Assembly: GCA_016181765.1 (NCBI GenBank)
Contig: JACOYR010000004.1
Coordinates: 115,937 to 179,936, forward strand
Direction of reading: 5' to 3'
Length of the DNA: 64,000 nt
From: Parcubacteria group bacterium
GTDB lineage: Bacteria; Patescibacteriota; Patescibacteriia; UBA2169
A model generated the notes under the pieces. That model saw only the letters and a program-made list of their open reading frames with translations, did no database searches and had not been told where the DNA came from. Every line of letters begins with the position of its first letter. The first letter of the stretch is position 1. Shown piece after piece: positions 59 through 62,444 of this stretch. The position numbers were made by a program, and so were the translations under genes.

Positions 59-66
59 TATGGTTT

Positions 67-102
67 CCCCCTCCTTTACCAAGGAGGGGGTCAGGGGGTG
101 GT
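67..102 (+). repeat. Palindromic GC-rich repeat copy 1 (ccccctcctt-tacc-aaggaggggg-tcagggggtggt)
   Basis: Hairpin plus conserved YNAGGGGGTGG tail; intergenic between dnaJ start and upstream ORF. Confidence 0.7.
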
Positions 103-1545: not shown

Positions 1546-1551
1546 ATCCTA

Positions 1552-1586
1552 CCACCCCCTAACCCCCTCCTCATTAGAGGAGGGGG
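1552..1586 (-). repeat. Palindromic GC-rich repeat copy 2, inverted orientation (ccaccccctaa-ccccctcctc-atta-gaggaggggg)
   Basis: Reverse complement matches the family consensus; lies just downstream of dnaK stop, may act as its terminator. Confidence 0.7.
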
Positions 1587-1596
1587 AACCAAGAGA

Positions 1597-11043: not shown

Positions 11044-11053
11044 ATTCCACGTT

Positions 11054-11087
11054 CCCCGCCTTACTAAGGAGGGGTTAGGGGAGGTTG
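11054..11087 (+). repeat. Palindromic repeat copy 3 (ccccgcctt-acta-aggagggg-ttaggggagg), supplies SD for dus
   Basis: Family consensus with minor degeneration, immediately upstream of dus ATG. Confidence 0.55.
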
Positions 11088-15729: not shown

Positions 15730-16668
15730 CTACGTTTTTTGTATAATGCGCAGCTTGGCGCTCCGCGAAGGCTTGTTCGCGAGCGCCTCGGCGCGGGTTG
15801 GTTTCTTGACTTTCTTGTTTACCAGGGTGATGGTTGGCGCTTGGGCGCGCGCCGCATCCCTAAAAAAGAATTTCACGATGCGGTCCTCCAGGGAATGGAA
15901 CGATAATACCGCCATGCGCCCGCCCGGAGCGAGCAGCGAAACCAGCTCGGGCAGGGCCCTCTTGAGGTTTTCCAATTCACCGTTGGTAGCTATGCGCAGA
16001 GCCTGGAAAATGCGGGTAGCGGGGTGGATGCGGTACCTACCGCGCCCTCCGGCTCCGCGCACAACTACGTCTGCCAGTTCTCGGGTGGTGTTGATGGGCG
16101 CGCGCTTGCGCGCAGCGGCTATTGCCTGTGCTGCGCGAGCGGCGTGCCGCTCTTCACCATATTCGGTGAATATTCGTTCCAGAGATTTCTCTGGCCAGGT
16201 GTTCACTATCTCGCGCGCGGTTAGCGTCCCCTGGTCAGAAAACCTCATGTCTAGCGGTCCTTCAGTGTTGAAACTAAATCCTCTAGACTCGTCTTTGAGT
16301 TGATCGCGAGATACACCCAGATCCAGTAGTACAGCGCTAACCGGATAAAATCGTTGTTCATACGCAATTCGTTTTGTTTCGGTATAATTTGCTTGTTTGA
16401 AGATGACTCTCTTTGCTTCCCCCTCCTTTGTCCTCAAGGAGGGGGCGAGGGGGTGGTTGTACTTTGCAAGGCGTTTTTGTGAACGCCCGATCGCGTCCTG
16501 GTCCCAGTCAATGGCGAGGAGCCTCCCGTTTGGGGCCGTTGCGTTAAGGATCGCTTCCGCGTGTCCCCCTCCGCCCACGGTTGCATCTATGACAAGCGCT
16601 CCGGGTTTCAAATTAAGCCCATTAACTGCCTCCTCAAGCATGACGGGAATTTGTAGGGATTCACTCAT
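15730..16668 (-). CDS. rsmH: 16S rRNA (cytosine1402-N4)-methyltransferase RsmH, containing an in-frame palindromic-repeat insertion
   Basis: RsmH motifs (DATVGGGGH, LLDLGVS, GFSF); repeat copy 4 at 16419-16457 translates as NHPLAPSLRTKEGEA. Confidence 0.9.
   Translation of the reverse strand: MSESLQIPVMLEEAVNGLNLKPGALVIDATVGGGGHAEAILNATAPNGRLLAIDWDQDAIGRSQKRLAKYNHPLAPSLRTKEGEAKRVIFKQANYTETKRIAYEQRFYPVSAVLLDLGVSRDQLKDESRGFSFNTEGPLDMRFSDQGTLTAREIVNTWPEKSLERIFTEYGEERHAARAAQAIAAARKRAPINTTRELADVVVRGAGGRGRYRIHPATRIFQALRIATNGELENLKRALPELVSLLAPGGRMAVLSFHSLEDRIVKFFFRDAARAQAPTITLVNKKVKKPTRAEALANKPSRSAKLRIIQKT
16419..16457 (+). repeat. Palindromic repeat copy 4, located inside rsmH coding sequence in frame
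   Basis: ccccctcctt-tgtcctc-aaggaggggg-cgagggggtggt matches family consensus. Confidence 0.7.
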
Positions 16669-17380: not shown

Positions 17381-17456
17381 ATTCCCCCTCCTTGATTTAA
17401 GGAAGGCTTGACTAAACATTCCCCCTCCTTGATAAGGAGGGGGTTAGGGGGTGGTA
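17381..17456 (+). repeat. Palindromic repeat copy 5 with partial tandem duplication, upstream of mraZ
   Basis: cattccccctccttgat occurs twice (17380 and 17418); second unit completes aaggaggggg-ttagggggtggt. Confidence 0.65.
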
Positions 17457-18852: not shown

Positions 18853-18878
18853 CCCCGCCTTATCCGAAGGCGGGGCCT
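18853..18878 (-). terminator. Stem-loop ccccgcctt-atccg-aaggcgggg downstream of hypothetical gene
   Basis: 9-bp perfect stem. Confidence 0.35.
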
Positions 18879-20289: not shown

Positions 20290-21176
20290 TACTCACCTCC
20301 CTTTCGGGTTGGGGTTATCCTGCGTTGAGGTTGAACAACGTCAGTCACATCATCCTTAAACCCCCCGTGCTCGCGCGGCCAATCGTGGATGGCATTCACA
20401 AGCGTGTCATAGGGATAGATAAACTCTTCACCGCGCCGTGTGCCAGGATCATTGGTGATAAACTGCGTTGGCGTGTACCCGCGGATGATGAGCATGTGGT
20501 ACAGGGGCCCGTCTCCGGTAAAATTTGGGTTCCCGAGCATCCGGCCCGCAGCAGGGATAATGACGAGCTTGTTTGATGAGATGCGGCGCTTGATGTTATC
20601 AACGCTCACATCATCATCCAGCACTGCGGAACCCTTAAAATATTCCTGCCAGATGAACGCCACTTCTGCGGCTGTGGTGTCTTCGTAGTACCCGAACGTA
20701 TTCTGCTCCCAGGCAACCAGTTCTCTGATTGCCTCATCCATTTGTTCCGCGGACAAACTCTCGCCGAAAAAAAATCTATCAGCCATGATAAGGGACGCTT
20801 CTTCGCACGCTTCCTGATAGGGCAATGACCAATCAGCATGCGGAGCTTGGGATTGGAACGGGACCGCAAGGTTGTACTCAACCGGAATTCCCCCTCCTGT
20901 AACTCCGGGGTCCCCAGAAACTGCCGAAGGCATTTCTGGGGTGGAACTGAGGGGGACGGGGGGTGGTGACGCGCCCTCGCTGTCATTGCGAGGAGCCCCG
21001 TCCGGCGCATCATTAAGATTGCTTCGCTCCCCCGCCGAATCGGCGGGTTCGCTCGCAATGACATCAGAGTATGGAACAGCCTCCGGCAAACCAGGCTCTT
21101 GGTTTGCATACCAAATAATTACAGCCCCTATAATGACGATAATTACAAAAATTTTTTTCATAAAAAAGTTATCCAC
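20289..21176 (-). CDS. Membrane-anchored secreted C39-like peptidase domain protein with low-complexity linker containing an in-frame repeat copy
   Basis: N-terminal TM, candidate Cys (EACEEAS) and His (YHMLIIRGY) of C39_2-like fold; repeat at 20890-20968 encodes PPPVPLSS...GGGI. Confidence 0.5.
   Translation of the reverse strand: MDNFFMKKIFVIIVIIGAVIIWYANQEPGLPEAVPYSDVIASEPADSAGERSNLNDAPDGAPRNDSEGASPPPVPLSSTPEMPSAVSGDPGVTGGGIPVEYNLAVPFQSQAPHADWSLPYQEACEEASLIMADRFFFGESLSAEQMDEAIRELVAWEQNTFGYYEDTTAAEVAFIWQEYFKGSAVLDDDVSVDNIKRRISSNKLVIIPAAGRMLGNPNFTGDGPLYHMLIIRGYTPTQFITNDPGTRRGEEFIYPYDTLVNAIHDWPREHGGFKDDVTDVVQPQRRITPTRKGGE
20890..20968 (+). repeat. Palindromic repeat copy 6, expanded by ~50-bp internal insert, inside C39-like peptidase gene
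   Basis: ccccctcct ... gagggggacggggggtggtg flank an inner hairpin ccagaaa..ttctgg. Confidence 0.55.
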
Positions 21177-32342: not shown

Positions 32343-32850
32343 CGCGCACCCGCGCAATACGCAGGGACAACCGGACCGCGAGAGCCGCGCCAAGGCCCAC
32401 CAGCGCGCCAACTGCCGCATCCTCAACGAAGTGGACGCCGGCAAGCACGCGTCCCACGGACACCAAAAACGCCATGCCCAAAAATAGCCAGGCGTTTTTT
32501 TGTTTCATCAGGGCATAAGCGCACCCGAGCGCCCACGCGATTGCGGCATGGTCCGAGGGGTACGAGCCCCCTAAGTGCGCGGTGCTGATGAGAGCATGCG
32601 CAACCTCGCCCGAAACAAACGGCCGGGGGCGGACGATTAGGAAGCCAATCAGCGCATTAGCGCCGTACGCAAGAAGGGCGCTCCCAGCAAGGAGTATTGC
32701 CGCGCGGCGCGTGGTCCGGGCGCGCCAGAGCGCGATCAAAAGCAAAACGGCCATCACCCATATCAAATAGGACGCCAAAAAAACAACCAGGGATTCGGGC
32801 AGGCGCTCTCCCGCCTCAAACAGGGCACGGCTTGCGGATGGGCCAATCAT
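32326..32850 (-). CDS. PAP2-family phosphatase (undecaprenyl-diphosphatase-like)
   Basis: PAP2 motifs KX6RP (IVRPRPF), PSDH (YPSDHAA), SRX5HX3D (GRVLAGVHFVEDA). Confidence 0.8.
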   Translation of the reverse strand: MIGPSASRALFEAGERLPESLVVFLASYLIWVMAVLLLIALWRARTTRRAAILLAGSALLAYGANALIGFLIVRPRPFVSGEVAHALISTAHLGGSYPSDHAAIAWALGCAYALMKQKNAWLFLGMAFLVSVGRVLAGVHFVEDAAVGALVGLGAALAVRLSLRIARVRAIVSR

Positions 32851-34427
32851 ACGAGCGAGCGGGAGGCCATGTCCGCGGGAATGGGCAGGCCGAGGATAGT
32901 GAGGATGGTCGGGGCAACGTCCGAAAGCACGCCCCCAACCGTCATCTGGTGCAAGGCGAGATCGCGCTCAAGCGGTTCCGCGCGCTTGAACGCGTCCCCC
33001 ACCAGGGTGCACGGCACCGGATTGGCGCTGTGCTCTTTGATGATGTGCCCGTTTTCCCAATTCACCATCTCTTCCGCGTTTCCGTGGTCAGCGGTTATGA
33101 TGAGCACACCGCCCCGCTTGGCAACGGCGCGGGCGACCGCGGCAAGGGATTCGTCCACCGTGCGCAAACCCTGGATGGTTGCCGCGAGGTTGCCGGTGTG
33201 CCCCACCATGTCCGCGTTCGCGAAATTGGCGATGATCACGTCGTGCGCCCGGGACTGGAGGGACTCAAGGATCTTCCTGGTGATGTCCGGGGCAGACATC
33301 TCGGGCTTGTCCGCGTACGAGGCAACGCCCGCGGAGGGCACGATCACGTTCTCCTGGCCTTGGTAGCTCTTGTCCTCGCCCCCGTTGAAAAAGTAGGTCA
33401 CGTGCGCGTACTTTTCGGTTTCCGCGATATGGAGCTGTGAGAGCGAGGCTTCGGAAAGCACGCGCGAAAGCGGGTACGCAACGATTTCTTTTTTGAACGC
33501 GACCCGCACCGGAAGGTCCAGGCCGTAGGAAGACATGGCCACGAAGTAGAGGTCCGAGAGCAGGGTCCGGGGAAACTTATTGAACCCCGGCAGCACGAAC
33601 GCGGCAGTGAGCTCCCGGGCGCGGTCCGGCCGGTAGTTCGTAAAAATCACTGAATCCCCGGGCTGGACCCGGCTGGTGCCGGGATCTCCCGGATGGGAGA
33701 TGGCTGCGGGAACAAACTCCTCGTCGTACACCCCGCGTCCGTAGCTTGCCGCAAGCGCGGCAAGCGCGTCCGGAAACGTTTCCGCGGACTCGCCGCGCGC
33801 CATGGCGCGGTACACCTGCTCAATCCGGTCCCAGTGGTTGTCGCGGTCCATGGCCCAGAACCGCCCGGAGAGGGTGGCAATGGTTCCGGCCCCGAGCCGC
33901 TTGATGGCTTTATCAAGCTGCTTGAGGTAGGTTGCGGCGCTATTGTACGGCGTATCCCTGCCGTCCAGGATGAGGTGCAAAAAAACCCGCGAAAGCTTTG
34001 CCCGCGCAGCCAGTTCCAAGGTGGCGTAGATGTGGTCCGCCTGCCCGTGGATCCCCCCGTCAGAGAGGATGCCCGCAATGTGCAGACTGGAATTATGCTT
34101 CTTGCAGTGCGCAATGGCCCCCGCGAGCTCCGCGTTCTCAAAAAAGCTTCCGTTCTCAATGGCCTGGTTGATGCGCAACACGTCCTGGTACACGATCCTG
34201 CCGGCCCCGAGGTTAAGGTGCCCCACTTCGGAGTTGCCGGGCTCGCCCCAGGGCAATCCCACCGCCTCGCCGCTCGCGGCGAGGCTGAATGTCTGGTACT
34301 GCTTGAGCAAGGAGCCGTAAAACGGCAGGCGCGCCTCGGTGATGGCGTTGCCGCGCGAAGGAGGGGCAATCCCGAACCCGTCCAGAATCACGAGCGCGAG
34401 CGGTAGGTTGTTGGCGGATGCGGGCAT
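32847..34427 (-). CDS. gpmI: 2,3-bisphosphoglycerate-independent phosphoglycerate mutase, paralog 1
   Basis: Full-length iPGM with metal-binding and phosphoserine motifs. Confidence 0.9.
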   Translation of the reverse strand: MPASANNLPLALVILDGFGIAPPSRGNAITEARLPFYGSLLKQYQTFSLAASGEAVGLPWGEPGNSEVGHLNLGAGRIVYQDVLRINQAIENGSFFENAELAGAIAHCKKHNSSLHIAGILSDGGIHGQADHIYATLELAARAKLSRVFLHLILDGRDTPYNSAATYLKQLDKAIKRLGAGTIATLSGRFWAMDRDNHWDRIEQVYRAMARGESAETFPDALAALAASYGRGVYDEEFVPAAISHPGDPGTSRVQPGDSVIFTNYRPDRARELTAAFVLPGFNKFPRTLLSDLYFVAMSSYGLDLPVRVAFKKEIVAYPLSRVLSEASLSQLHIAETEKYAHVTYFFNGGEDKSYQGQENVIVPSAGVASYADKPEMSAPDITRKILESLQSRAHDVIIANFANADMVGHTGNLAATIQGLRTVDESLAAVARAVAKRGGVLIITADHGNAEEMVNWENGHIIKEHSANPVPCTLVGDAFKRAEPLERDLALHQMTVGGVLSDVAPTILTILGLPIPADMASRSLV

Positions 34428-34436
34428 AGAGGGGGC

Positions 34437-36008
34437 TTACGCCTTAAACAGGCTCTTGCCGGTCATCTCCTCGGGCTTCCGGATGCCGAAAAGGTCCAGG
34501 ATAGTGGGGGCCACATCCCCGAGGATCCCCTCCTGGCGCACCCGGGGCAGGGCAGGCCTGCCCGCGGATTCGGCGGGCCAGATCCAGCACGGAACCTGGT
34601 TCTTGGAGTGCTCGGTGTCAACGCGCCCGCTGGACAAATCTTTCATCTCCTCAATGTTGCCGTGGTCCGCGGTCACGATGAGTACGCCGCCCCTGCGCGC
34701 AACCGCATCAGCAACCGCGCCCACGGCCGCGTCCGTTGCCTTAAGCGCGATCCGTGCCGCCGCAAAGTCGCCGGTGTGCGCCACCATGTCCGTGGCCGCA
34801 ATGTTCGCGGCCACAAAATCATACCCCTCGGAAAGGGCGCGCACGATTGCTGCCGCGATTTGGGCGGTTGCCATTGCCGGAGCCTGGTCGTAGCGGTCAA
34901 CCGCGGGCGACGGGATCATGAGCCGCTTTTCGCCGGCGACCGGATCCGCGTACCCCCCGTTGAAAAAGTACGTCATGTGCGCGTACTTTTCGGTTTCCGC
35001 GATGTAGAGCTGGCGCTTGCCCGCGAGTACTGCGGGCAGGGTGCGGGTGACGTCTATGCTCGGGTAAGCCGTGAGAATGCCTTCCAGGTCCGGCCCGAAG
35101 TCCGAAAGCGCCACAAACTTCAGATTTTTTATGACCTTTTTTGGCTTGAACGTTTCCGAGTTCTTTCCGATGAAATCTTTCTGCACAAAAGGCTTGGTGA
35201 GCTGGCGCGCCCGATCCGACCGGTGGTTGAAAAAGATGATGGAATCGTTATCTTGGATCGTGCCGATGGCCCTGCCGCCCTCGCAAATGACTGTGGGCTC
35301 TATGAACTCGTCCGTAACGCCATTTTCGTAATTTGCGTCAAACACTGCAAGCGGCTCTTGGGCGCAGGGCCCCTCGCCCAAGACAATCGCGTTATAGATC
35401 CGCTCGGTCCTTGCCCACTCTTTTTTGCGGTCCATGGCAAAGAACCGGCCCGTGATGCTCGCGATTGCCTGGCCCGGGGCGAGCCGCCGCGCGAGGGACG
35501 CGCAGAGCTCGCGTCCCGCGCGCGGCGAAGAGTCCCGGCCGTCCGTGAACAAATGCACGTACACGCGCTCCACGCGTTCCCGGGACAGGAGTGCAAGCAG
35601 CGCGTACAGATGCTCGGGCGTTGCATGCGCGCTCTGGCCGTCCGAGAGCATGCCCATCAAATGCACGCGTGAGTTATTCCGCTTGGCATGGCCAATGGCT
35701 TCGCGGAACGCGGGATTTTTGTTAAAAGTGCCATCCGCGATTGACTCCGAAATGATCACCGGGTCCTGCTTGACCACCCTGCCCGCGCCCAAATTAAGGT
35801 GCCCTGCCTCGGAGTTCCCGTCCTGGTCCTTGGGCAGGCCAACGTACTGGCCGTGCGCCCAGAGCCGCGCGGTCCGCGACTCGCCCTCTATTTTATTGAA
35901 CAAGGGCAGCTCGGTTCTTGTGATGGGATTTGATTCGGAATCCGGAGCAAGCCCAAAGCCGTCCAGGACGAGCAGCACGACCGGCCCTAAAATTTTTGTG
36001 TTCTGCAT
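34437..36008 (-). CDS. gpmI: 2,3-bisphosphoglycerate-independent phosphoglycerate mutase, paralog 2 (divergent, roughly 45% identity to paralog 1 by eye)
   Basis: Same domain architecture; tandem with paralog 1. Confidence 0.9.
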   Translation of the reverse strand: MQNTKILGPVVLLVLDGFGLAPDSESNPITRTELPLFNKIEGESRTARLWAHGQYVGLPKDQDGNSEAGHLNLGAGRVVKQDPVIISESIADGTFNKNPAFREAIGHAKRNNSRVHLMGMLSDGQSAHATPEHLYALLALLSRERVERVYVHLFTDGRDSSPRAGRELCASLARRLAPGQAIASITGRFFAMDRKKEWARTERIYNAIVLGEGPCAQEPLAVFDANYENGVTDEFIEPTVICEGGRAIGTIQDNDSIIFFNHRSDRARQLTKPFVQKDFIGKNSETFKPKKVIKNLKFVALSDFGPDLEGILTAYPSIDVTRTLPAVLAGKRQLYIAETEKYAHMTYFFNGGYADPVAGEKRLMIPSPAVDRYDQAPAMATAQIAAAIVRALSEGYDFVAANIAATDMVAHTGDFAAARIALKATDAAVGAVADAVARRGGVLIVTADHGNIEEMKDLSSGRVDTEHSKNQVPCWIWPAESAGRPALPRVRQEGILGDVAPTILDLFGIRKPEEMTGKSLFKA

Positions 36009-40061: not shown

Positions 40062-43000
40062 TTAGAGGCCTAAGAGTGATTTGATGGGCGCGAACACGCG
40101 GAACGGGTTAAAGCCGGATCCAGAGGAACCCCGCTTAGTGGAAGCTCCCTGCACGGTCCCGCAGTCAGCCGGGCAGGATGACGTGGTTTCTCCGGTGCCG
40201 CAGTATGCGTTGCCGCACGTTTCCGAGGTATAGGAACTACTCCCGCAGTCGCCCGGGCACTTGGAAGAATCTTCCCCGTTGCCGCAAACGCCATCGCAAC
40301 TCGGGCCGTAATCATAGCTGCCGCTTCCAGTGCTTCCACTGCTTCCGCAGTCGCTCCAGCACGACGTGGATGTTTCGCCGCTGTCGCACGCGCCATTTCC
40401 GCAGTATGATCCCGAACTTCCGCCCGTGGCGCCGGTGCTGGAACAGCCGGTTGCGGGCGTGGCGGCACAGGAATACAGGGTTCCGTTCGCGGTGTAGTAA
40501 TTGAGCATGGACGAATCAAAACAGTTGCCGTCCGAACCCATAGTGTGCCAGCCGCTCCCGTATTTGGTGTCACAACTAGAGGTTGTTGATGTCGTGCCGC
40601 CGGTGAATGCGGAACAGCCAGGGTCCGCCGCATCAATGAAGCCATCAGCATCATTATCAACGCCGTCCGCGCATTTGAGCTGCGTGTCTTCGTAGCTGCT
40701 CGCCGCCGTTCCGCACCCGGATGATGAGTAATAGCAGTAGCTCGTTGAACCACTGCTGGTACTGGCGTACCAGCAACAATTTGAGGCAGCGGTGCACGAC
40801 GCCTGGCCAGCATACGAACCGCATGAGCCATACTGGCCGCTTGAGCCGCCGCAGTCGCTTGGGCAGCTTGAGTACGATTCATTGGACTCGCACACGCCGT
40901 CGCTGTCGCAGAATGAGCCGCTTCCCCCGCTCGTGTACGCGGAACAGCCCGGGTCCGCCGCATCAATATAGCCATCAGCATCATTGTCAACGCCGTCCGC
41001 GCATTTGAGCTGTGTGTCTTCGTAGCCGCCGCTCGTGGTTCCCCCGCAATCAGCAGGGCACGACGTGGAAGATTCGCTGGAACCGCAGATGCTGTCCCCG
41101 CACGTGTCGGTCCTGCACGCCGTAGGGCAGCCCGTGCTGCTGTAGGTACAGCCACTCGGGCACTTTGAATAGGAGCACGAGTAGGAGCCCGTGTTGTTGT
41201 TGTACGCGTTGATGGGGCACACCCCGCCGGAAGAGAGGCAGCTCGCCGGGCACCCGGTTGAATCGTAGTTGCACCCATTCGGGCATGCCTTGTAGTTGCA
41301 CGTGGTTCCGGTGGTCTGGTTGTTGTACTGGTTCGCCGGGCACGAAGGGGCGGTGTAGCAGCCCGTGGTACAGCCGGTTGAATCATAGCTGCACCCTGAC
41401 GGGCACTTCTTGTAACTGCACGAGTAGCCGCTGGTATAGTCGTTAAACTCAGTTGCCGGGCACGAAGTTGTTGTGCCGGACTTGCAGTCGCTCGGGCAGG
41501 ACGACGTGGTTTCTCCGCTTCCGCAGAATCCATTGCCGCATGTCTCCTTTACTTCTACTTCACTGGCGCCAGAACAATCCGGAATGCCGAAGTTCCTCCA
41601 GTCTCCGTCATCCCCTGCGTTGGATTTCCAGGAAAAATTCGCTTTTGGAACCTTGGTGCACTGCGCGGCAACGCCTGCGATGAAGCTTATGTACTCGCTG
41701 TCCGTGCGGTTCAAAATGTATGAGGTTTCAGTTTGGCCGTCGCTGAACTTCCAGGTCTTGCTCACCCAATTCTTGCTGCCCGGGTCTTCTGGGGCTTTCT
41801 CCGGGGCTGTGCACTTGCCCAGGAACTGGTCGTAATAATCCCCCGGGGCGCAGGTTGGGGAGCAACCCTTGGCGCAGCCAAAATTATCGTACAAGCAGTA
41901 GCTTGAGCCGCTACACGAGGGCGTGCACGAGAGCGGGCAGTTGCCCACCACCGAACTGTCCTGCCTGCAGTACCCACTGTCGTCCCACACCCAGCCGCGC
42001 TCGCACGAGCCCTTGCTTGGTGGTACGTAATCACTGCTGTTCAGGCACTTCTTGATCTGCTGTGCCCAGAACTGGCCCTTGGCGCACTCCTGGATAAAGG
42101 TTCCGCACTGCCCAAAGTATTTAACCGCAACGCCGCGAGCGCGCGCCTTGCAGTCATTGTCATAGGTGGCGTTGTCGCTGCCGCACACCGGACTGTAGAC
42201 ATCCGGGCAACCAGTTCTTCCCGTTGACTGGATGCACTCGCCGAATCGGGCGCACCCCTGCGAATCTTTGACAATGTCGCGCACCTGCCCCTCGGGACAC
42301 CCGAGCGGCGATTGCGCCGAAAGGTCCGGGCAAATGGCTACCTGCTGTATGCACGAGGGCTGGCCGCAGGGATCCCCGGGCCGGGGTGGAACAGGCTGTT
42401 CTCCGGGATTGCACGCCCGCGGCGGATTGTAAACCGCCGGACAGATGAGCGTCTGTTCGCAATACCCTCGGCTTGAGTTCCACCGCTCAAAAGGACCGCA
42501 CTGCGCAAAACCAACCGGTGGACGGTAGTAGGGGTCAACCGCGCACGAAGTTCCATTCCAGTACTGGCCAGCTGCGCATGAAACACTCGCCAAGTCAATC
42601 TCATTTTGGTACACGCACTGGTTGCGCCCCTGGTCAAAAAAGCCGCCCGGGCCGCAATCCTTGAACGTGTGTTCAACCGTTGCCCACTCGCACCCCCGAA
42701 CCCCGGGGTTCGCCGTACAGTACTGCTCGCACTGCTCCGGGGTAGTGCACTTGCCGGCCAGGGGGTTGTTCTCTTTGAAATCTTTCCGCTCCCGCTCAAT
42801 GCGGTTGCGCTCCCGCACCAAGTCGTCCGCCAGGCGCTCTTTTTCGTGCCGCGCCTCCTGCTCCAAAAACGTCAGCTGTATCTGGCGGCACGCGCTGTCG
42901 CACCAGGGGTCATTTTGCATGCGAGCCTCAAAAATCCGCTTGCGCTCGCCAAACACCTCGTCAGACCGCGATACCTGATTATTGATTTTTTCTTCCCACA

Positions 43001-44948
43001 GCGCCTTTCGGGTTCCAAAGTCTTCCCAGGAAATATCGTTGAGCTTCTCAAAAAATGCCTCCTCTTCCTGGCGCTGGACACGGTCCACCTGGAAGTTCAC
43101 CTCCCGCTCTTCATAGTCCAGCGCGGCCCGCGCAATCTCCCGCTCGCGCTCAAACTTCTGCTGTTCAACCTTGCGGACCTTGAACTGCAAGGCATCCTGG
43201 AATCCGCTGTCGCGGGCCCTGATGTCGTTGATGACGAACTCCGGCACGTCAAAGAACCGCTCGTGGAACCGGTCAAACGCTGCCGGCTCGGAAACGTCCT
43301 GCATGAACACTTTGTATTGTTCCGTGTTCTTGCGCACGAATTGGTCCTGGAACTCATCTCCAAACTGCAGATCCGCAAGAATCGCCATGTCAGAGGGATC
43401 CAGGGTTGCCACCTGGTTCAAAAACCGGTCCCCTTGCCGGCGATACTGGCTCTCAAACTGCTGGGTCATGGCCTGCTCTATCTGGTCCAAGAACTCCCGC
43501 TTTGCCGGGTCGGCTTGAACATCCTGTTCAAGGGAAGCAATCAGCTTAAAGGTCTTTGGAGAGGGATTGTTCAAAAAGTCGTCAGAGAGTTTTTGAAACC
43601 TCGCTGCCTGGTCCTGGGACTCGGCATCCTTAAACCGCTGCTTGAACGCGTCAACCGAACGGCTGTGCACCCCCTCAACGAGCTTGAATTCCTCCGAATC
43701 GGCGCTCATGCGGTTCTTAAACTCATCAAGCACAACCAAGTCCGCAACATCGTCGGTATCAAAAGACCGAAAGAACCGGTCAGAAACCTCGGGGTCGTCA
43801 ATAAGGGAGAGCTTGTCCTCAAACTTGCGGACCGCAATTTCCTTGGCCTCTTCTATCTTTGCGAGGATGTCGTCCGAAATGCCGCTTGACCGCTTGATTT
43901 CTTCCAGGATCCCGAGGAGCCGCGTTTCATCAATGGCCGCGTGCTCCAGGTACTGGGAAAACTTCTGGCCGCGCACGGCCTCGGGAATGTTCTGGATGCG
44001 GATCTCAAACTTTTGGATGGTGTTCTTTTTGGCCTGCGCAATCGCGTCTTTAACCGTAGCCGGAGCGCTGTCCCGCATGGCCTCAAGGATTTCCAAATTC
44101 TTAAGCTCCTTAAACTCGGACCCGGCCTGCTTGTCAAAGGCGCGCGTCATGCGGACGCGGACCTGATCCGGCTCATCTTCCACTCCGGCCAAGAGCTCGG
44201 TAAAATTTCCAATGGTTTTTTCCTTGGCGTCCGAAACATGCGCCACCACCTGCTCAAGCCCGGCATCCGGCTCCTCGCCCGTATCCCGCGCAAGCTGGCG
44301 CGCTTTGACTGCCTCGTCCGAAATGTCCTCCAGCACCTGCCGGTGCTTGATCTGCTTGTCCGCCACCTCGTCCAGCACGCGCTCCACCTCAAGCGGGTTG
44401 TCGGCCTTGGCGCTCTTGAGACGGGCCGTGGTCGCCCGCACATCCTCAAACTTCTTCTCAAACCGATCAATGGCGCGGTTCAGCGCGCCCGGATCCACTT
44501 GCGAAACACCTCGCTCATCAACCATCTGCTTGACCTCGGAAAGCTCCTGGTTCGCGTGCTTGAACTTAAGCTCCGCGTCCGCGACCGAGTCAAAAGTGAA
44601 CGCCTCCTGGATGCCCCAGCCAAAACGCTTGAACACGTGCAGAGGGTTATCAGGCAGGATGCGCGCCTCGCTGGTTCCCAAATCTTGAAGGCTGACACTG
44701 AAGTCCTGCACCACCTCAAGCGGAGGCTCATTTGACTGGGCTGCGGTCTGGGTAGCGCCGTCAGAAACCGGTTCTTGAGTTGCAGATTCAGCATCGCCCG
44801 CAGCCTGGTCCTGTACTGCTTGGTCTTGCGCCCCCGCAATCCCAACAAACAAAAAAGCCGCTGACAACGCGGCTACGAAAACAGACAACAACGAAAATCG
44901 TGTTGTTTGGCGGTTTAAGCGTACACTACAATATGTGCCAACCCCCAT
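40062..44948 (-). CDS. Giant membrane-anchored surface protein (1628 aa): N-terminal TM, ~700-aa charged helical stalk, C-terminal mosaic of Cys-rich modules including a Kazal-like domain, tandem ~38-aa Cys repeats, Asp-rich Ca-binding-like motifs and CGNGxCxxGET..CPxDC repeats
   Basis: Uninterrupted ORF; CPDVYSPVCGSDNATYDNDCKARARGV matches Kazal consensus; KCADGVDNDADGYIDAADPGCS occurs twice; repeats CP..YN..TG..C.Y..CP.GC.YDSTGC three times. Confidence 0.7.
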   Translation of the reverse strand: MGVGTYCSVRLNRQTTRFSLLSVFVAALSAAFLFVGIAGAQDQAVQDQAAGDAESATQEPVSDGATQTAAQSNEPPLEVVQDFSVSLQDLGTSEARILPDNPLHVFKRFGWGIQEAFTFDSVADAELKFKHANQELSEVKQMVDERGVSQVDPGALNRAIDRFEKKFEDVRATTARLKSAKADNPLEVERVLDEVADKQIKHRQVLEDISDEAVKARQLARDTGEEPDAGLEQVVAHVSDAKEKTIGNFTELLAGVEDEPDQVRVRMTRAFDKQAGSEFKELKNLEILEAMRDSAPATVKDAIAQAKKNTIQKFEIRIQNIPEAVRGQKFSQYLEHAAIDETRLLGILEEIKRSSGISDDILAKIEEAKEIAVRKFEDKLSLIDDPEVSDRFFRSFDTDDVADLVVLDEFKNRMSADSEEFKLVEGVHSRSVDAFKQRFKDAESQDQAARFQKLSDDFLNNPSPKTFKLIASLEQDVQADPAKREFLDQIEQAMTQQFESQYRRQGDRFLNQVATLDPSDMAILADLQFGDEFQDQFVRKNTEQYKVFMQDVSEPAAFDRFHERFFDVPEFVINDIRARDSGFQDALQFKVRKVEQQKFEREREIARAALDYEEREVNFQVDRVQRQEEEAFFEKLNDISWEDFGTRKALWEEKINNQVSRSDEVFGERKRIFEARMQNDPWCDSACRQIQLTFLEQEARHEKERLADDLVRERNRIERERKDFKENNPLAGKCTTPEQCEQYCTANPGVRGCEWATVEHTFKDCGPGGFFDQGRNQCVYQNEIDLASVSCAAGQYWNGTSCAVDPYYRPPVGFAQCGPFERWNSSRGYCEQTLICPAVYNPPRACNPGEQPVPPRPGDPCGQPSCIQQVAICPDLSAQSPLGCPEGQVRDIVKDSQGCARFGECIQSTGRTGCPDVYSPVCGSDNATYDNDCKARARGVAVKYFGQCGTFIQECAKGQFWAQQIKKCLNSSDYVPPSKGSCERGWVWDDSGYCRQDSSVVGNCPLSCTPSCSGSSYCLYDNFGCAKGCSPTCAPGDYYDQFLGKCTAPEKAPEDPGSKNWVSKTWKFSDGQTETSYILNRTDSEYISFIAGVAAQCTKVPKANFSWKSNAGDDGDWRNFGIPDCSGASEVEVKETCGNGFCGSGETTSSCPSDCKSGTTTSCPATEFNDYTSGYSCSYKKCPSGCSYDSTGCTTGCYTAPSCPANQYNNQTTGTTCNYKACPNGCNYDSTGCPASCLSSGGVCPINAYNNNTGSYSCSYSKCPSGCTYSSTGCPTACRTDTCGDSICGSSESSTSCPADCGGTTSGGYEDTQLKCADGVDNDADGYIDAADPGCSAYTSGGSGSFCDSDGVCESNESYSSCPSDCGGSSGQYGSCGSYAGQASCTAASNCCWYASTSSGSTSYCYYSSSGCGTAASSYEDTQLKCADGVDNDADGFIDAADPGCSAFTGGTTSTTSSCDTKYGSGWHTMGSDGNCFDSSMLNYYTANGTLYSCAATPATGCSSTGATGGSSGSYCGNGACDSGETSTSCWSDCGSSGSTGSGSYDYGPSCDGVCGNGEDSSKCPGDCGSSSYTSETCGNAYCGTGETTSSCPADCGTVQGASTKRGSSGSGFNPFRVFAPIKSLLGL

Positions 44949-61160: not shown

Positions 61161-62408
61161 CTATATATTTGAAACCAGCTCTGTTTCTTTTGCGCCGCGC
61201 TTTTTGGCTTCAATCTTGCCTTTGGTCTTGGGGCTTATGACGAGCCGGGTTGGAATGCCGATTAAATCCGCATCTGCGAACTTTTCCGCGTTGGACGCTT
61301 CACGCCTATCATCCCATAACACTTCTTTTCCGCCCGCGGCCAGCGACTCGTACACTTTTTCGGACTGCTGGTATACTGCATCATCATCGCCCAAGCTAAC
61401 CAGGTGATAAGCAAAAGGCGCAACTTCCTCGGGCCAGATGATGCCATGCTCGTCATGGTGCACTTCCACGATCGCGCCCATTAAACGGGAGATGCCGATG
61501 CCATAGCAGCCGATGATGACCTCTTTTGATTTCCCGCTTTCATCCGTAAACTTGAGGCCGAAATCTTTGGAAAACTTGGTTCCCAAATCAAAGATATTTC
61601 CGACTTCAATAGTCTTGAGCTCTTTGACGGGTGTGCCGCAGTCAGGGCACGCCACCCCCCCTTTCTTCCCCCCCTTACCAAGGGGGGGATTGAGGGGTGG
61701 TAGATTTGCGATTTCCTTATTTTGCGCAAACCCGCAATCGCACGCAAAAATCACATCTTCCCCGTTCTCGGTTGCAACCTGGAACTCGTGCGAGTACTCT
61801 TTGGTGAATGACCCGCCCGATGCCTCGGTGATGATCGCGTCCAAGCCGCAGCGCTTGAAAACTTTTGCGTACGCGCCTTTCGCCTTTTCGTAGTATAGCT
61901 TGAGATCTTCGGCAGACGCGTGGAAGCTGTACAAATCTTTCATCAAAAATTCGCGGCCGCGCAGCAACCCGGCTTTGGCGCGCAGCTCATCCCTGAACTT
62001 GGTCTGAATCTGGTACCAGGCCCGCGGCAAATCGCGGTAGGAATTAATGTGCTTTTTGGCCAAAGGCACAATCACCTCTTCGTGGGTCGGGCCCAGGGCG
62101 TACTCGGATCCCGCGCGCGAGGGAACTTTGAACAGCACGTCCATGCTGTCCCATCGCCCGGTCTTCTGCCAGTTCTCTTTGGGGTGCAGGGCGGGCAGGG
62201 AAACTTCCTGCCCGTTGATTGCATCCATCTCCTCGCGCACAATAGCGCTGATATTTTCCAGAACCCGGACGCCTAATGGCAGGTATGAATACACGCCCGC
62301 CATCAACTGGTCAACAAACCCGGCGCGCACTAAAAAATTGTGGTTTGCGCTCTGCGCGCTCCCCTCGCCGGTTTTGCTTGTTTTGCTGAAGAGAAGCGAC
62401 TGCCGCAT
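61161..62408 (-). CDS. proS: Prolyl-tRNA synthetase, minimal form lacking editing insertion, with in-frame palindromic-repeat insertion between two Cys pairs
   Basis: ProRS class II motifs (MRQSLLFSKT, FRDE, SFH); repeat copy 7 encodes LPPLNPPLGKGGKKGGV. Confidence 0.9.
   Translation of the reverse strand: MRQSLLFSKTSKTGEGSAQSANHNFLVRAGFVDQLMAGVYSYLPLGVRVLENISAIVREEMDAINGQEVSLPALHPKENWQKTGRWDSMDVLFKVPSRAGSEYALGPTHEEVIVPLAKKHINSYRDLPRAWYQIQTKFRDELRAKAGLLRGREFLMKDLYSFHASAEDLKLYYEKAKGAYAKVFKRCGLDAIITEASGGSFTKEYSHEFQVATENGEDVIFACDCGFAQNKEIANLPPLNPPLGKGGKKGGVACPDCGTPVKELKTIEVGNIFDLGTKFSKDFGLKFTDESGKSKEVIIGCYGIGISRLMGAIVEVHHDEHGIIWPEEVAPFAYHLVSLGDDDAVYQQSEKVYESLAAGGKEVLWDDRREASNAEKFADADLIGIPTRLVISPKTKGKIEAKKRGAKETELVSNI
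61654..61703 (+). repeat. Palindromic repeat copy 7 inside proS coding sequence
   Basis: cccccccttaccaaggggggg-attgaggggtggtag, family consensus with C/G-homopolymer stem. Confidence 0.65.
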
Positions 62409-62444
62409 ATAGGGATATTCTACCACGCACGCTCTAAAAATCAA

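Follow-up and report, generated by a model that had tools for sequence, protein, structure and literature searches.

A complete copy of a short palindromic repeat lies in frame within proS, the prolyl-tRNA synthetase (ProRS) gene of a Parcubacteria genome, and, judged by alignment, this insertion is lineage-specific and made of repeat sequence. It is one of at least six copies of its family in the window, by which we mean the whole 64-kb stretch of DNA analyzed here. By analogy with known systems, the repeat is best read as selfish DNA that is associated with a nuclease and resembles REP/RAYT, NTS/Ssn, and the Rickettsia palindromic elements, and a DUF559 nuclease probably spreads it. The gene, its two cysteine knuckles, the enlarged loop, and the parts of the repeat copy are placed in the window as follows.

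61161-62408, minus strand: proS, bacterial-type prolyl-tRNA synthetase, 415 aa from MRQSLLF
61734-61742, minus strand: first cysteine knuckle of ProRS (C223 = 61740-61742, C225 = 61734-61736; codons read from the sequence)
61638-61649, minus strand: second cysteine knuckle of ProRS (C254 = 61647-61649, C257 = 61638-61640; codons read from the sequence)
61650-61706, minus strand: enlarged ProRS loop, residues N235-A253 (NLPPLNPPLGKGGKKGGVA), from alignment to orthologs
61652-61703, no strand assigned: proS repeat copy in its complete two-tailed form (outer arms, inner hairpin, and spacers, then TAG)
61652-61661: outer arm CCACCCCCCC of the copy
61662-61667: first spacer (TTTCTT)
61668-61688: inner hairpin CCCCCCCTT-ACC-AAGGGGGGG, with a 9-bp stem
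61689-61693: second spacer (ATTGA)
61694-61700: outer arm GGGGTGG, then TAG

The copy falls within an open reading frame at 61161-62444 on the minus strand (program-made ORF list), the product of which matches the Pfam families tRNA-synt_2b (E 2e-34) and HGTP_anticodon (E 8e-10), i.e., both the class II core and the anticodon-binding domain are present; the protein is 100% identical to NCBI HYT31_03390, from a Parcubacteria MAG. It resembles the bacterial ProRS structure 5UCM of P. aeruginosa (E 5e-100), and residues 252-407 of 5UCM are skipped in the alignment, indicating that the INS editing domain is missing. At the INS position, between motifs 2 and 3, there are instead ~16-28 residues of a putative zinc ribbon. 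In an alignment of 41 orthologs, C223 of the first knuckle and C254 of the second are invariant, whereas C225, P255, and C257 are at least 90% conserved. As read from these residues, this Parcubacteria ProRS has, in place of the INS editing domain, a mini zinc ribbon built on four cysteines. Rhodopseudomonas palustris ProRS (PDB 2I4L), a bacterial-type enzyme that likewise has no INS, shares the core and the anticodon-binding domain; in contrast, the ProRS studied here and those of related Patescibacteria have a C-x-C...C-P-x-C mini zinc ribbon at the INS position, which in this Parcubacteria genome is split by the repeat.

The proS copy reads CCACCCCCCC-TTTCTT-CCCCCCCTT-ACC-AAGGGGGGG-ATTGA-GGGGTGG across 61652-61700, a pattern matched by 0 of 100 shuffles of the window. 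Like other members of the family, its inner hairpin has a C-rich 5' arm and a G-rich 3' arm and is followed within 2-5 nt by a GGGGGTGG(T) tail. More specifically, GGGGTGGT at 61694-61701 has its complement, CCACCCCCCC, at 61652-61661, making the copy two-tailed, a near-perfect 50-nt palindrome with terminal inverted repeats. The coding-strand RNA folds as a two-tier hairpin (-36.9 kcal/mol, z -3.3). The same two-tailed form was found at loci L026, L060, and L056, and the all-C/G variant of the hairpin seen in proS recurs in L040, L056, L109, and L202. The L040 copy, located in a priA-like gene of another genome, is 94% identical to the proS copy over 49 nt and encodes the same peptide, PPLNPPLGKGGRRGGV.

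A sequence-only reading of this DNA had proposed that a minimal ProRS carries a repeat copy, in frame, with its CDCG pair on one side and its CPDCG pair on the other, and the ORF, the Pfam matches, and the alignment to orthologs all bear this out; the coding strand of the copy reads ...CDCGFAQNKEIANLPPLNPPLGKGGKKGGVACPDCG..., as stated there. Relative to 100 of 104 orthologs, the loop between C-x-C and C-P-x-C is longer by 12 residues, the segment from N-x-E-[IVL] to C-[PD]-x-x spanning 20 residues here versus 6-9 in those orthologs. The closest ortholog has seven residues (KVRAGDA) at the position of the enlarged loop. Of the sister genomes, which the sequence-only reading had proposed to check for absence of the insert, the nearest relative (P0002/L001; 90% amino acid and 85% nucleotide identity) has an empty site, GCAAA/AGTCAGGGCAGGGGATGCG; its MAG carries the repeat family elsewhere, in frame in fmt (L017). 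The insert had been described as 50 bp long, and the repeat copy is real, but the net gain over orthologs is 36 nt, less than the full 50 bp and equivalent to 12 rather than 17 amino acids; ~17 nt on the 3' side of the copy stand in for native G-rich codons. A more distant relative (P0003) carries a similar repeat copy at the same proS site, a related copy occupies this site in two independent assemblies, L002 (ENA) and L003 (Logan), and longer loops at the site are found in two further orthologs, P0068 and P0101. No target-site duplication, flanking direct repeat, or defined junction is visible at the proS or rsmH insertions.

Structural modeling agrees with the suggestion that the insert sits in a loop, and a disordered one. 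In the AlphaFold model (mean pLDDT 87), insert residues 240-242 and 244-250 have pLDDT values below 50 and no secondary structure; the repeat is predicted to add a floppy, disordered loop of 12 residues to ProRS. This site corresponds to the INS domain position of other bacterial ProRS and is thus naturally permissive.

The other family copies in the window are mostly intergenic.

65-102, plus strand: intergenic, directly upstream of a dnaJ-like start (ATG 61-59, minus strand)
1549-1588, minus strand: intergenic, flanked by the stop of dnaK (1597) and the ATG of a DUF6998 gene (1545)
11050-11085, plus strand: degenerate, intergenic, with its tail GGGGAGGT 7 nt upstream of the Dus ATG (11092)
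16418-16457, plus strand: in frame in rsmH (CDS 15730-16668, minus strand)
17385-17456, plus strand: intergenic, with a full copy at 17418-17456 preceded by a partial 5'-arm duplicate at 17385-17407

The first two form an inverted pair, 87% complementary and 1448 nt apart, and the AAGGAGG arm of the copy at 65-102 occupies the expected ribosome-binding-site position of the dnaJ-like gene. As had been claimed, the rsmH copy is a true in-frame insertion: it adds 14 aa, giving a protein that reads KY-NHPLAPSLRTKEGEAK-RV, and is absent from most orthologs. At the DNA level, the alignment shows a 42-nt insertion common to L205 (P0121) and absent in L204 and L206. The DUF6998 gene beside the copy at 1549-1588 was considered as a partner nuclease and rejected, because three homologs elsewhere lie in restriction/defence contexts without the hairpin.

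The sequence-only reading had also taken a codon phase shared by the proS and rsmH copies as a sign of selection for a translatable frame. The phase is indeed shared over CCC-CTC, but only there; the spacers differ (TCG versus TCAAT), and the hairpin arms of the two copies are therefore read in different phases. Selection is not indicated, as composition alone opens frames: four of six frames are free of stops in 80-92% of 122 scorable copies, and copies within real genes of other genomes occur in at least five combinations of frame and orientation. The xHPL[TSA]PS frame is used by 17 of 30 in-ORF copies, several of these ORFs being spurious high-GC ones, and the frame excess among clearly real genes is modest.

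Beyond what had been noted before, the repeat itself is not confined to one lineage: it is found in many phyla and is linked to DUF559 genes. The family takes the form CCCCCTCC-loop-GGAGGGGG-NN-AGGGGGTGGT, i.e., a G/C-rich hairpin of 38-50 nt overall with a GGGGGTGG tail on one or both sides. GGAGGGGGNNAGGGGGTGGT matches at least 120 contigs, where the complementary arm precedes nearly all matches and the top of the stem covaries, and nearly the same 38-nt sequence is found in many phyla, including Acidobacteriota, Proteobacteria, Bacteroidota, and Patescibacteria. Copies elsewhere are often in frame within conserved genes, among them those for LeuRS, RNase R, trigger factor, UvrD-like helicase, RarA, QueA, SufD, and others. 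Across an alignment of 123 copies, the base after GGTGGT is variable and there is no conserved tag; the 5' arms were out of register in this MAFFT alignment, and we therefore used fuzzy patterns rather than a covariance model. No Rfam family covers the repeat, either in the window at the gathering threshold or in ten loci at E up to 5. The sole nearby Rfam match is an Acido-Lenti-1 RNA ~110 nt from a repeat cluster in L055. A BLAST search of PLSDB plasmids with the repeat consensus gave no match, perhaps owing to the low-complexity filter, and literature searches by repeat sequence returned unrelated eukaryotic papers only.

The association with DUF559 was seen in two sets of loci. All 11 DUF559 ORFs in a first set, chosen for containing the repeat, have a copy within ~100 nt, mostly on both sides. 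An independent set comprised 80 metagenome loci selected solely through a DUF559 protein pattern (four query sequences); here a hairpin lies within 150 nt of DUF559 in 64 loci (80%) and on both sides in 36 (45%), and hairpin density is 5.2 per kb near DUF559 versus 0.38 per kb farther off. The flanked ORFs match Pfam DUF559 (E 1e-31 to 1e-35), the profile of which matches PDB 3HRL (E 5e-31) and the catalytic domain of the I-Bth0305I homing endonuclease (3R3P, E 1e-4); the E-x-D-G-x-x-H residues E60, D62, and H66 are invariant. DUF559 has been grouped with Vsr and I-Bth0305I in one PD-(D/E)XK clade (PMC3424549). A hairpin-flanked DUF559 lies in frame within LeuRS in two Bacteroidota MAGs (L023, L025), and another splits, likewise in frame, the methyltransferase domain of an MmeI-type enzyme (L134). 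We found no intein domain around in-gene DUF559 (Pfam, E up to 0.001) and no intron in L023 (Rfam). The flanking copies are not uniformly arranged, their tails pointing inward, outward, or in the same direction. DUF559 protein similarity does not covary with hairpin subtype (50.5% versus 51.7% identity) and thus gives no sign of co-evolving specificity. The window itself contains no DUF559 gene, and the literature searched (DUF559, Vsr-like proteins with repeats, REP with Patescibacteria) yielded no published link between DUF559 and repeats.

We consider it likely, though well short of certain, that the proS copy is a non-autonomous copy of a selfish repeat, harmless in the zinc-ribbon loop and owing its spread to DUF559. 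Under this explanation, a repeat copy would have inserted between the two cysteine knuckles, into the loop of the ProRS mini zinc ribbon, and would persist because it is harmless there: since the repeat is stop-free in most frames and encodes a Pro/Gly/Lys-rich linker peptide, the enzyme would gain only a 12-residue disordered surface loop. A lone nuclease is unable to transpose DNA by itself. The DUF559 protein, a Vsr/I-Bth0305I-like PD-(D/E)XK endonuclease, would recognize the hairpin and tail, and nicking or cleavage followed by host recombination repair would spread both the cassette and solo copies, in a homing-like manner or in one analogous to REP/RAYT and NTS/Ssn. A tail-hairpin/DUF559/hairpin-tail cassette may also collapse via its identical hairpins, leaving a two-tailed solo copy.

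More tentatively, and with rather less than even confidence, we suggest that the repeats and DUF559 together make up an undescribed cross-phylum class of selfish elements, a minimal homing or nicking cassette of ~420-450 bp with inverted-repeat ends built for translation. If this is true, then: (i) stop-free Pro/Gly-linker ends let the cassette and its footprints live in frame without an intron or intein; (ii) the host genes of cassettes and footprints include essential ones, such as those for aminoacyl-tRNA synthetases, rRNA methyltransferase, and RNase R; (iii) the very large DUF559 family gains a function; and (iv) there is an explanation for the ...HPLTPSL..RRG... and ...PPLL.EGE... peptides that recur in proteins predicted from many phyla.

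The proS copy could instead be the footprint of a former in-frame hairpin-DUF559-hairpin cassette from which hairpin recombination removed the nuclease, a sub-variant of the explanation above that concerns the arrival of the proS copy only. In-frame cassettes of this kind are known from the LeuRS and MmeI-type genes, those with outward tails (L083, L051, L085) would collapse to the exact tail'-hairpin-tail form of proS, and L098 holds a truncated DUF559 remnant between two copies. However, among the 120 ProRS relatives listed (395-478 aa), none is long enough to hold DUF559 at the site, and judging from L040, with its near-identical two-tailed copy, the 50-nt unit seems to be copied as such; we regard a collapsed cassette as an unlikely origin of the proS copy.

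Less probable still is that the repeat serves the host mainly as a cis-acting signal in RNA or DNA (such as a hairpin that hides or provides the ribosome-binding site, an mRNA stabilizer, or a terminator), its coding copies being accidental by-products or translational pause sites. Its arms contain AAGGAGG and CCTCCTT, the latter resembling the 3' end of 16S rRNA, and intergenic copies lie 3-11 nt upstream of dnaJ, DUF6998, Dus, and DUF559 start codons; copies with a Shine-Dalgarno-like sequence at gene starts make a host-level role in expression possible. The hairpin is strong (-37 kcal/mol) and its stem covaries. The rsmH copy differs between two lineages at 1 of 44 positions in a core chosen post hoc, versus 17% across the rsmH genes, whereas the alignment-defined 42-nt block differs at 4 of 42 positions, which is not significant (P = 0.14); nucleotide conservation of this copy is only suggestive on these alignments. 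Several observations argue against a host signal: the sequence is also present in Bacteroidota, a group that relies little on Shine-Dalgarno pairing; copies lie in both orientations and within ORFs; Rfam has no match; and the presence or absence of copies differs between close relatives. Such a signal would also leave unexplained both the two-sided flanking of DUF559 and the near-identical copies in unrelated genes.

We think it very improbable that ProRS gained the extra loop adaptively, for example for contact with tRNA or a partner, with the resemblance to the repeat secondary. In favor of this idea, the insert stays in frame, the second lineage (P0003) has a related insert at the same site, and P0068 and P0101 also have longer loops; yet the closest relative does without the insert, the peptide is of low complexity with disorder predicted, an unrelated gene (L040) encodes the same peptide, and the nucleotide palindrome is kept although protein function does not need it. 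An artefact or chance product (homopolymer mis-assembly, named in the sequence-only reading as a possible refutation, a chimeric contig, or local slippage) is scarcely credible, for although the copy contains three 7-base homopolymers and comes from a metagenome-assembled genome, the reading frame is intact through all three, the flanking protein sequence is conserved, an identical protein is public, this proS site holds related copies in two independent assemblies, shuffling the window never reproduced the pattern, and a hairpin-plus-tail architecture present in more than 120 copies elsewhere is not a product of slippage.

The nuclease-associated selfish repeat that we favor can be compared with several known systems. 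Rickettsia palindromic elements (RPE), reportedly described by Ogata et al. in 2000, are palindromic selfish repeats of 100-150 bp, found in Rickettsia only, that lie in frame in protein-coding and even essential genes and are tolerated as an extra surface peptide; to our knowledge, they have no associated nuclease. The proS repeat is likewise an in-frame palindromic insertion, the presence of which varies between relatives. Unlike RPE, it is 38-50 nt long, has a Parcubacteria host and an unrelated sequence, occurs in many phyla, and flanks DUF559. RPE are also discussed in PMC1779305 and a MITE review (PMC10969869). REP and BIME elements, which are associated with RAYT, a Y1 HUH protein, are imperfect palindromes, short and G/C-rich, that occur alone, in inverted pairs, or clustered (PMC3333891, PMC3479197, PMC3733652). 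As with REP/RAYT, the gene of the associated nuclease is flanked by repeats. In contrast, the associated protein here is Vsr-like PD-(D/E)XK rather than HUH/Y1, the conserved GTAG or CGTC tag of REPs is missing in the 123 copies, and REPs are species-specific and extragenic whereas the DUF559-linked repeat is cross-phylum and often within genes.

Flanking frequencies are similar in NTS/Ssn: according to PMC11893778, 71% of Ssn genes have at least one flanking NTS repeat and 42% have repeats on both sides, versus 80% and 45% for the small DUF559 nuclease here. The NTS/SRM-Ssn repeats also combine a hairpin with a conserved non-palindromic flank that orients the repeat, and also occur across phyla; they differ in repeat sequence and in having a GIY-YIG nuclease in place of the Vsr-like DUF559. 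The passages of that paper searched make no mention of in-frame insertion of repeats or of the nuclease gene for Ssn. Vsr-like (EDxHD) homing endonucleases such as I-Bth0305I (3R3P) are borne by group I introns or inteins (PMC3239194, PMC2677866, PMC3424549). DUF559 shares their Vsr-like catalytic domain, with the E/D/H residues conserved, but in-gene DUF559 is bounded solely by translatable hairpins and stays in the host protein, and unlike intron or intein elements the cassette has no self-removal from RNA or protein. Terminal inverted repeats in the two-tailed form recall MITEs; unlike these, the proS and rsmH insertions lack target-site duplications, and the associated gene is a PD-(D/E)XK nuclease and not a known transposase.

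An essential aminoacyl-tRNA synthetase and an rRNA methyltransferase thus carry live-looking selfish DNA in their coding sequence in a very small genome, a situation previously known mainly from Rickettsia. The ~40-nt sequence bracketing DUF559 leads to a concrete and testable hypothesis for the large DUF559 family, that of a hairpin-specific nuclease with its own repeat, which would add a third instance, with a different nuclease fold, to the theme of REP/RAYT and NTS/Ssn. DUF559 enzymes may be of biotechnological interest, like Ssn enzymes, if they prove to be nucleases specific for sequence and structure. For annotation, it is useful to know that the repeats give rise to spurious ORFs, add odd stretches of low complexity to conserved proteins, and break metagenome assemblies at contig ends.

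The proS copy of the G/C-rich hairpin-plus-tail repeat lies at 61652-61703 of the window, within the following frame:

61161-62444, minus strand: ORF holding the repeat copy, ProRS
From Met13 (coordinate 62408), minus strand: proS, bacterial-type prolyl-tRNA synthetase (ProRS), 415 aa

At the DNA level, 61652-61700 reads CCACCCCCCC-TTTCTT-CCCCCCCTT-ACC-AAGGGGGGG-ATTGA-GGGGTGG, a near-perfect palindrome of 49 nt with a 9-bp inner hairpin and an outer arm pair. This pattern was matched in 0/100 shuffles of the window, and the coding strand, taken as RNA, folds into a two-tier hairpin (-36.9 kcal/mol, z -3.3). The encoded ProRS is identical to NCBI HYT31_03390 (Parcubacteria group MAG, 281-kb contig), carries the Pfam domains tRNA-synt_2b (E 2e-34) and HGTP_anticodon (E 8e-10), and has P. 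aeruginosa ProRS (5UCM; E 5e-100) as its closest solved structure. More specifically, HMMER aligned residues 4-242 and 258-408 with chain residues 12-252 and 407-560 of 5UCM. Because the alignment skips the region between, the window protein lacks INS (~155 residues), the editing domain of other bacterial ProRS, whose place is taken by a short segment with C223-x-C225 and C254-P-x-C257.

In proS, a widespread and structurally constrained repeat, able to occupy coding sequence, has been inserted in frame and in a lineage-specific manner. We observed C-x-C-G-F-A-Q-N-K-E-I-A-K-V-(K)-x-G-D-x-C-P-x-C in 39 of 41 aligned orthologs. Loop length, scored from N-x-E-[IVL] to C-[PD]-x-x, was parsable in 104 of the best 120 database relatives; the segment so delimited spans 6-9 residues in 100 of these 104 versus 20 in the window ProRS and 15 in the relative P0003, and two further ProRS have loops of 15-16 residues with inserts unrelated in sequence. 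These lengths bear out the insertion proposed in the sequence-only reading, whose peptide exactly matches the coding strand (CDCGFAQNKEIANLPPLNPPLGKGGKKGGVACPDCG). Likewise, the site is empty in the nearest relative, P0002 (90% aa and 85% nt identity; common synteny GAPDH-patatin-proS-serS), which reads GAAATCGCAAA|AGTCAGGGCAGGGGATGCG|TGCCCT where the window has 36 additional nt. The apparent inserted stretch is ~38 nt (TCTACCACCCCTCAATCCCCCCCTTGGTAAGGGGGGGA). As the native G-rich 19 nt of the empty site are the aligned counterpart of the next 17 nt (AGAAAGGGGGGGTGGCG), the right-hand tail may be partly remodelled native sequence. No target-site duplication was visible in the comparison with P0002. 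At the identical proS site, P0003 (79% nt identity) carries TTCCCCCCCTGCCAGAGGGGGGGATAGGGGGGGTGG, the all-C/G variant of the window's proS copy but with one tail, seen in two independent assemblies (loci L002 and L003). In a neighbour-joining tree, the window ProRS (P0001) paired with P0002, and P0004, P0005 and P0006 are all empty-site. The distribution of filled sites reflects a double gain at one position, lateral spread of the filled allele, or a single gain with several precise losses after it.

An AlphaFold2 model (input, 41-sequence alignment; mean pLDDT 87, pTM 0.88) contains the strands bearing the cysteine knuckles on both sides of the insert and places the insert itself in a loop, with residues 240-242 and 244-250 at pLDDT < 50 and without secondary structure. 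On this model, the insert thus forms a disordered loop at the tip of a mini zinc ribbon, a permissive site where other bacterial ProRS naturally carry INS.

Other copies in the window share the plus-strand consensus TTCCCCCTCCTT-loop-AAGGAGGGGG-TYA-GGGGGTGGT, and the proS copy is the sole all-C/G, two-tailed member (i.e., with a tail on both sides of the hairpin):

65-102: intergenic copy, immediately 5' of the dnaJ-like start (61)
1549-1588: intergenic copy in reverse orientation, immediately 5' of the DUF6998 start (1545)
11050-11085: degenerate intergenic copy, immediately 5' of the Dus start (11092)
15730-16668, minus strand: rsmH, carrying a copy at 16418-16457
17418-17456: copy with a partial duplicate at 17385-17407

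Upstream of dnaJ-like, DUF6998 and Dus, the ribosome-binding position is taken by the AAGGAGG arm or the GGTGG tail. The rsmH copy is a true in-frame insertion (42 nt = 14 aa, NHPLAPSLRTKEGE...). P0121/L205 is the one relative that shares it; P0122-P0128 and every more distant RsmH examined lack it. The full-length window RsmH does not appear among the protein-database matches listed, of which the best full-length one reaches 85% identity and a fragment of 172 aa reaches 100%; rsmH with its insert may be uncalled, or called differently, in public annotation. Possible degenerate relatives lie at 18853-18875 (a tail-poor hairpin, CCCCGCCTT-ATCCG-AAGGCGGGG, then CCTAGTGGTT) and at 20951-20967 (a GGGGGACGGGGGGTGGT stretch in a low-complexity linker of a Peptidase_C39-like ORF).

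The shared codon phase of the proS and rsmH copies had been read as selection for a translatable frame, and here the earlier interpretation, otherwise sound in its core, fails. The two copies agree in phase solely over CCC-CTC; because their spacers differ (TCG in rsmH vs TCAAT in proS), the arms translate as L-A-P-S-L and L-N-P-P-L, respectively. Across 122 scorable copies, four of the six frames lack stops in 80-92%, and the remaining two, closed by a spacer TAG or TAA, are open in about one-third; at least five frame/orientation combinations occur among copies in clearly real genes of other genomes. Translatability is therefore built into the repeat, and these two copies give no evidence of frame-specific selection. 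Separately, 17 of 30 in-ORF cross-phylum copies read in one frame (xHPL[TSA]PS, antisense to the tail), an excess supplied in part by spurious high-GC ORFs.

A scan of one genome per species found exact GGAGGGGGNNAGGGGGTGGT matches in at least 120 contigs. The matches listed include Acidobacteriota/Terriglobia, Gammaproteobacteria (including Thiotrichales), Bacteroidota, Ignavibacteria, Patescibacteria/Gracilibacteria, Planctomycetota, Desulfuromonadales and Sphingomonadaceae, as well as the cultured isolates Rudanella and Altererythrobacter. On the 5' side of nearly all matches listed lie a loop, mostly of 3-5 nt, and beyond it the complementary arm (T)TCCCCCTCC; the stem-top pairs covary (TT/AA 51, TC/GA 14, TG/CA 6, TA/TA 3). 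The upstream ACCACCCCC arm of the proS copy also occurs in L026, L060 and L056. A crude ORF analysis for copies well within long ORFs, followed by reading of the sequences, placed many in obvious conserved proteins:

L023, L025: LeuRS
L026: RNase R
L017:1133-1993: methionyl-tRNA formyltransferase (fmt), in frame, EPPPSPLLDTGGGS
L042: trigger factor
L043: UvrD-like helicase
L048: RarA
L115: QueA
L107: SufD
L099: ComEC-like protein
L040: PriA-like protein

Since L017 and L001 (the locus of P0002) belong to one MAG (sister Parcubacteria), a genome with an empty proS site bears the family elsewhere, in frame in fmt. One copy in L040 (1103-1149) is 94% identical to the proS copy over 49 nt, with identical spacer and loop, and encodes PPLNPPLGKGGRRGGV in a gene other than proS; no other single observation points as strongly to copying of the 50-nt unit between sites. 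The priA-like gene of L040 holds two in-frame copies, including this one. The contig is labelled Gammaproteobacteria but resembles the window in G+C (56.6% vs 55.6%) and in its three repeat copies, so that the label may be a binning error. In an Acidobacteria intergenic region (L055:1560-1800), three copies form a BIME-like cluster ~110 nt from an Rfam Acido-Lenti-1 RNA match (38.9 bits; gathering score 37).

The repeat family also brackets genes for DUF559 (Vsr-like) endonucleases, and such cassettes can sit in frame in host genes. In the LeuRS frame of L023 (850-1500) and L025 (400-930), from two Bacteroidota MAGs, two direct copies (..DHPLSPSVGGGTQ.. / ..NHPLSPSVGGGTQ..) bracket a 105-residue DUF559 domain (PF04480, E 1e-33; cassette ~175 aa in total) at the entry of the editing domain, just before VFTTRPDT. 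Similarly, in an MmeI-family restriction-modification enzyme (L134:10-2988; at least 993 aa), a DUF559 domain (residues 497-604), again between hairpin repeats, interrupts the methyltransferase domain in frame. A profile search of the first set of loci found 11 DUF559 ORFs, all with a repeat copy within ~100 nt and most with copies on both sides; two lie 0.7-3.6 kb from the copy used for retrieval. As these loci had been chosen for containing the repeat, we ran the reverse test on 80 metagenome loci retrieved by DUF559 peptide patterns alone. A CCCCTCC...GGAGGGG-type hairpin lay within 150 nt of the DUF559 gene in 64/80 loci (both sides, 36/80), hairpin density was 5.2 per kb near the gene versus 0.38 per kb in the farther flanks of those loci, and an exact 7-bp C/T-rich arm criterion detected 72/80. 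The typical compact cassette comprises hairpin, tail, 5-40 nt, DUF559 ORF, tail complement and hairpin; variants show outward tails, direct repeats, or an extra small hairpin separating hairpin from tail, and other hairpin subtypes are CCTTCCC, CTCCTCC and all-C, the last being that of proS. Longer composite repeats (..AACCACCCCGTCTGCGC..GCGAAGCCACC....CCCCTCCTAACTTAGGAGGGG) flank DUF559 in many soil metagenome loci (L137, L135, L130, L175 and others); we take their translations (..NHPVCA..PPLL.EGE..) to be recurrent low-complexity peptides of Acidobacteria and Planctomycetes hypothetical proteins.

Rickettsia (RPE) offers a known case of palindromic repeats lying in frame within essential genes; RAYT and Ssn are known nucleases whose genes are bracketed by hairpin repeats of their own; and Vsr-like homing endonucleases are known from introns and inteins. 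The searched literature appears to contain no description of this repeat, of its occurrence in near-identical form across phyla, of an association between it and DUF559, or of a DUF559 cassette residing in frame without intron or intein. This wider context makes the proS case more than a single odd insertion. The E-x-D-G-x-x-H residues are invariant across element-associated DUF559 proteins, whose profile matches PDB 3HRL (E 5e-31) and 3R3P (E 1e-4). The latter is the catalytic domain of I-Bth0305I, a group I intron homing endonuclease; Vsr, DUF559 and I-Bth0305I were grouped in one PD-(D/E)XK clade (PMC3424549). We hypothesize a functional link in which DUF559 would recognise hairpin plus tail and promote copying of the cassette, and of solo repeats (i.e., repeats without a nuclease gene), via break or nick repair. 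Such copying would parallel REP/RAYT (PMC3333891) and especially NTS/SRM repeats with GIY-YIG Ssn nucleases, whose genes are flanked by their own hairpin targets at frequencies very similar to those of DUF559 here (PMC11893778). Recombination between the two identical hairpins of an outward-tail cassette would collapse it to exactly the two-tailed proS form, so that a footprint origin of the proS copy is plausible. Against a firm mechanism, a profile search found no DUF559 gene within the 64-kb window, no insertion junction is visible, the repeats are arranged around DUF559 in differing ways, hairpin subtype shows no co-variation with DUF559 sequence, and intergenic copies could serve expression of neighbouring genes.

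Elsewhere in the window, two repeat copies in inverted orientation (87% complementary, inward-facing tails) flank the dnaK-dnaJ interval (65-1588), which contains three extra minus-strand ORFs, namely DUF6998 (148 aa), a 236-aa ORF that opens with a hydrophobic run whose last residue is Cys, and a third ORF of ~100 aa. The D...IQIK motif of DUF6998 looks like a PD-(D/E)XK nuclease motif. Sister genomes have no close relative of DUF6998; its best matches, at 56-60% identity, come from Pseudomonas, Ralstonia and others, and its homologs occur in restriction/defence contexts, so that the block looks horizontally acquired. A minus-strand ORF at 40062-44948 (1628 aa) contains internal GCA/TGC-rich direct repeats of 57-131 nt (families D1, D3, D5 and D6). 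At 32847-36008, two neighbouring minus-strand ORFs (526 and 523 aa) have several conserved nucleotide blocks in common, ~1578 nt apart (D9, D16 and D19), which suggests a tandem gene duplication.
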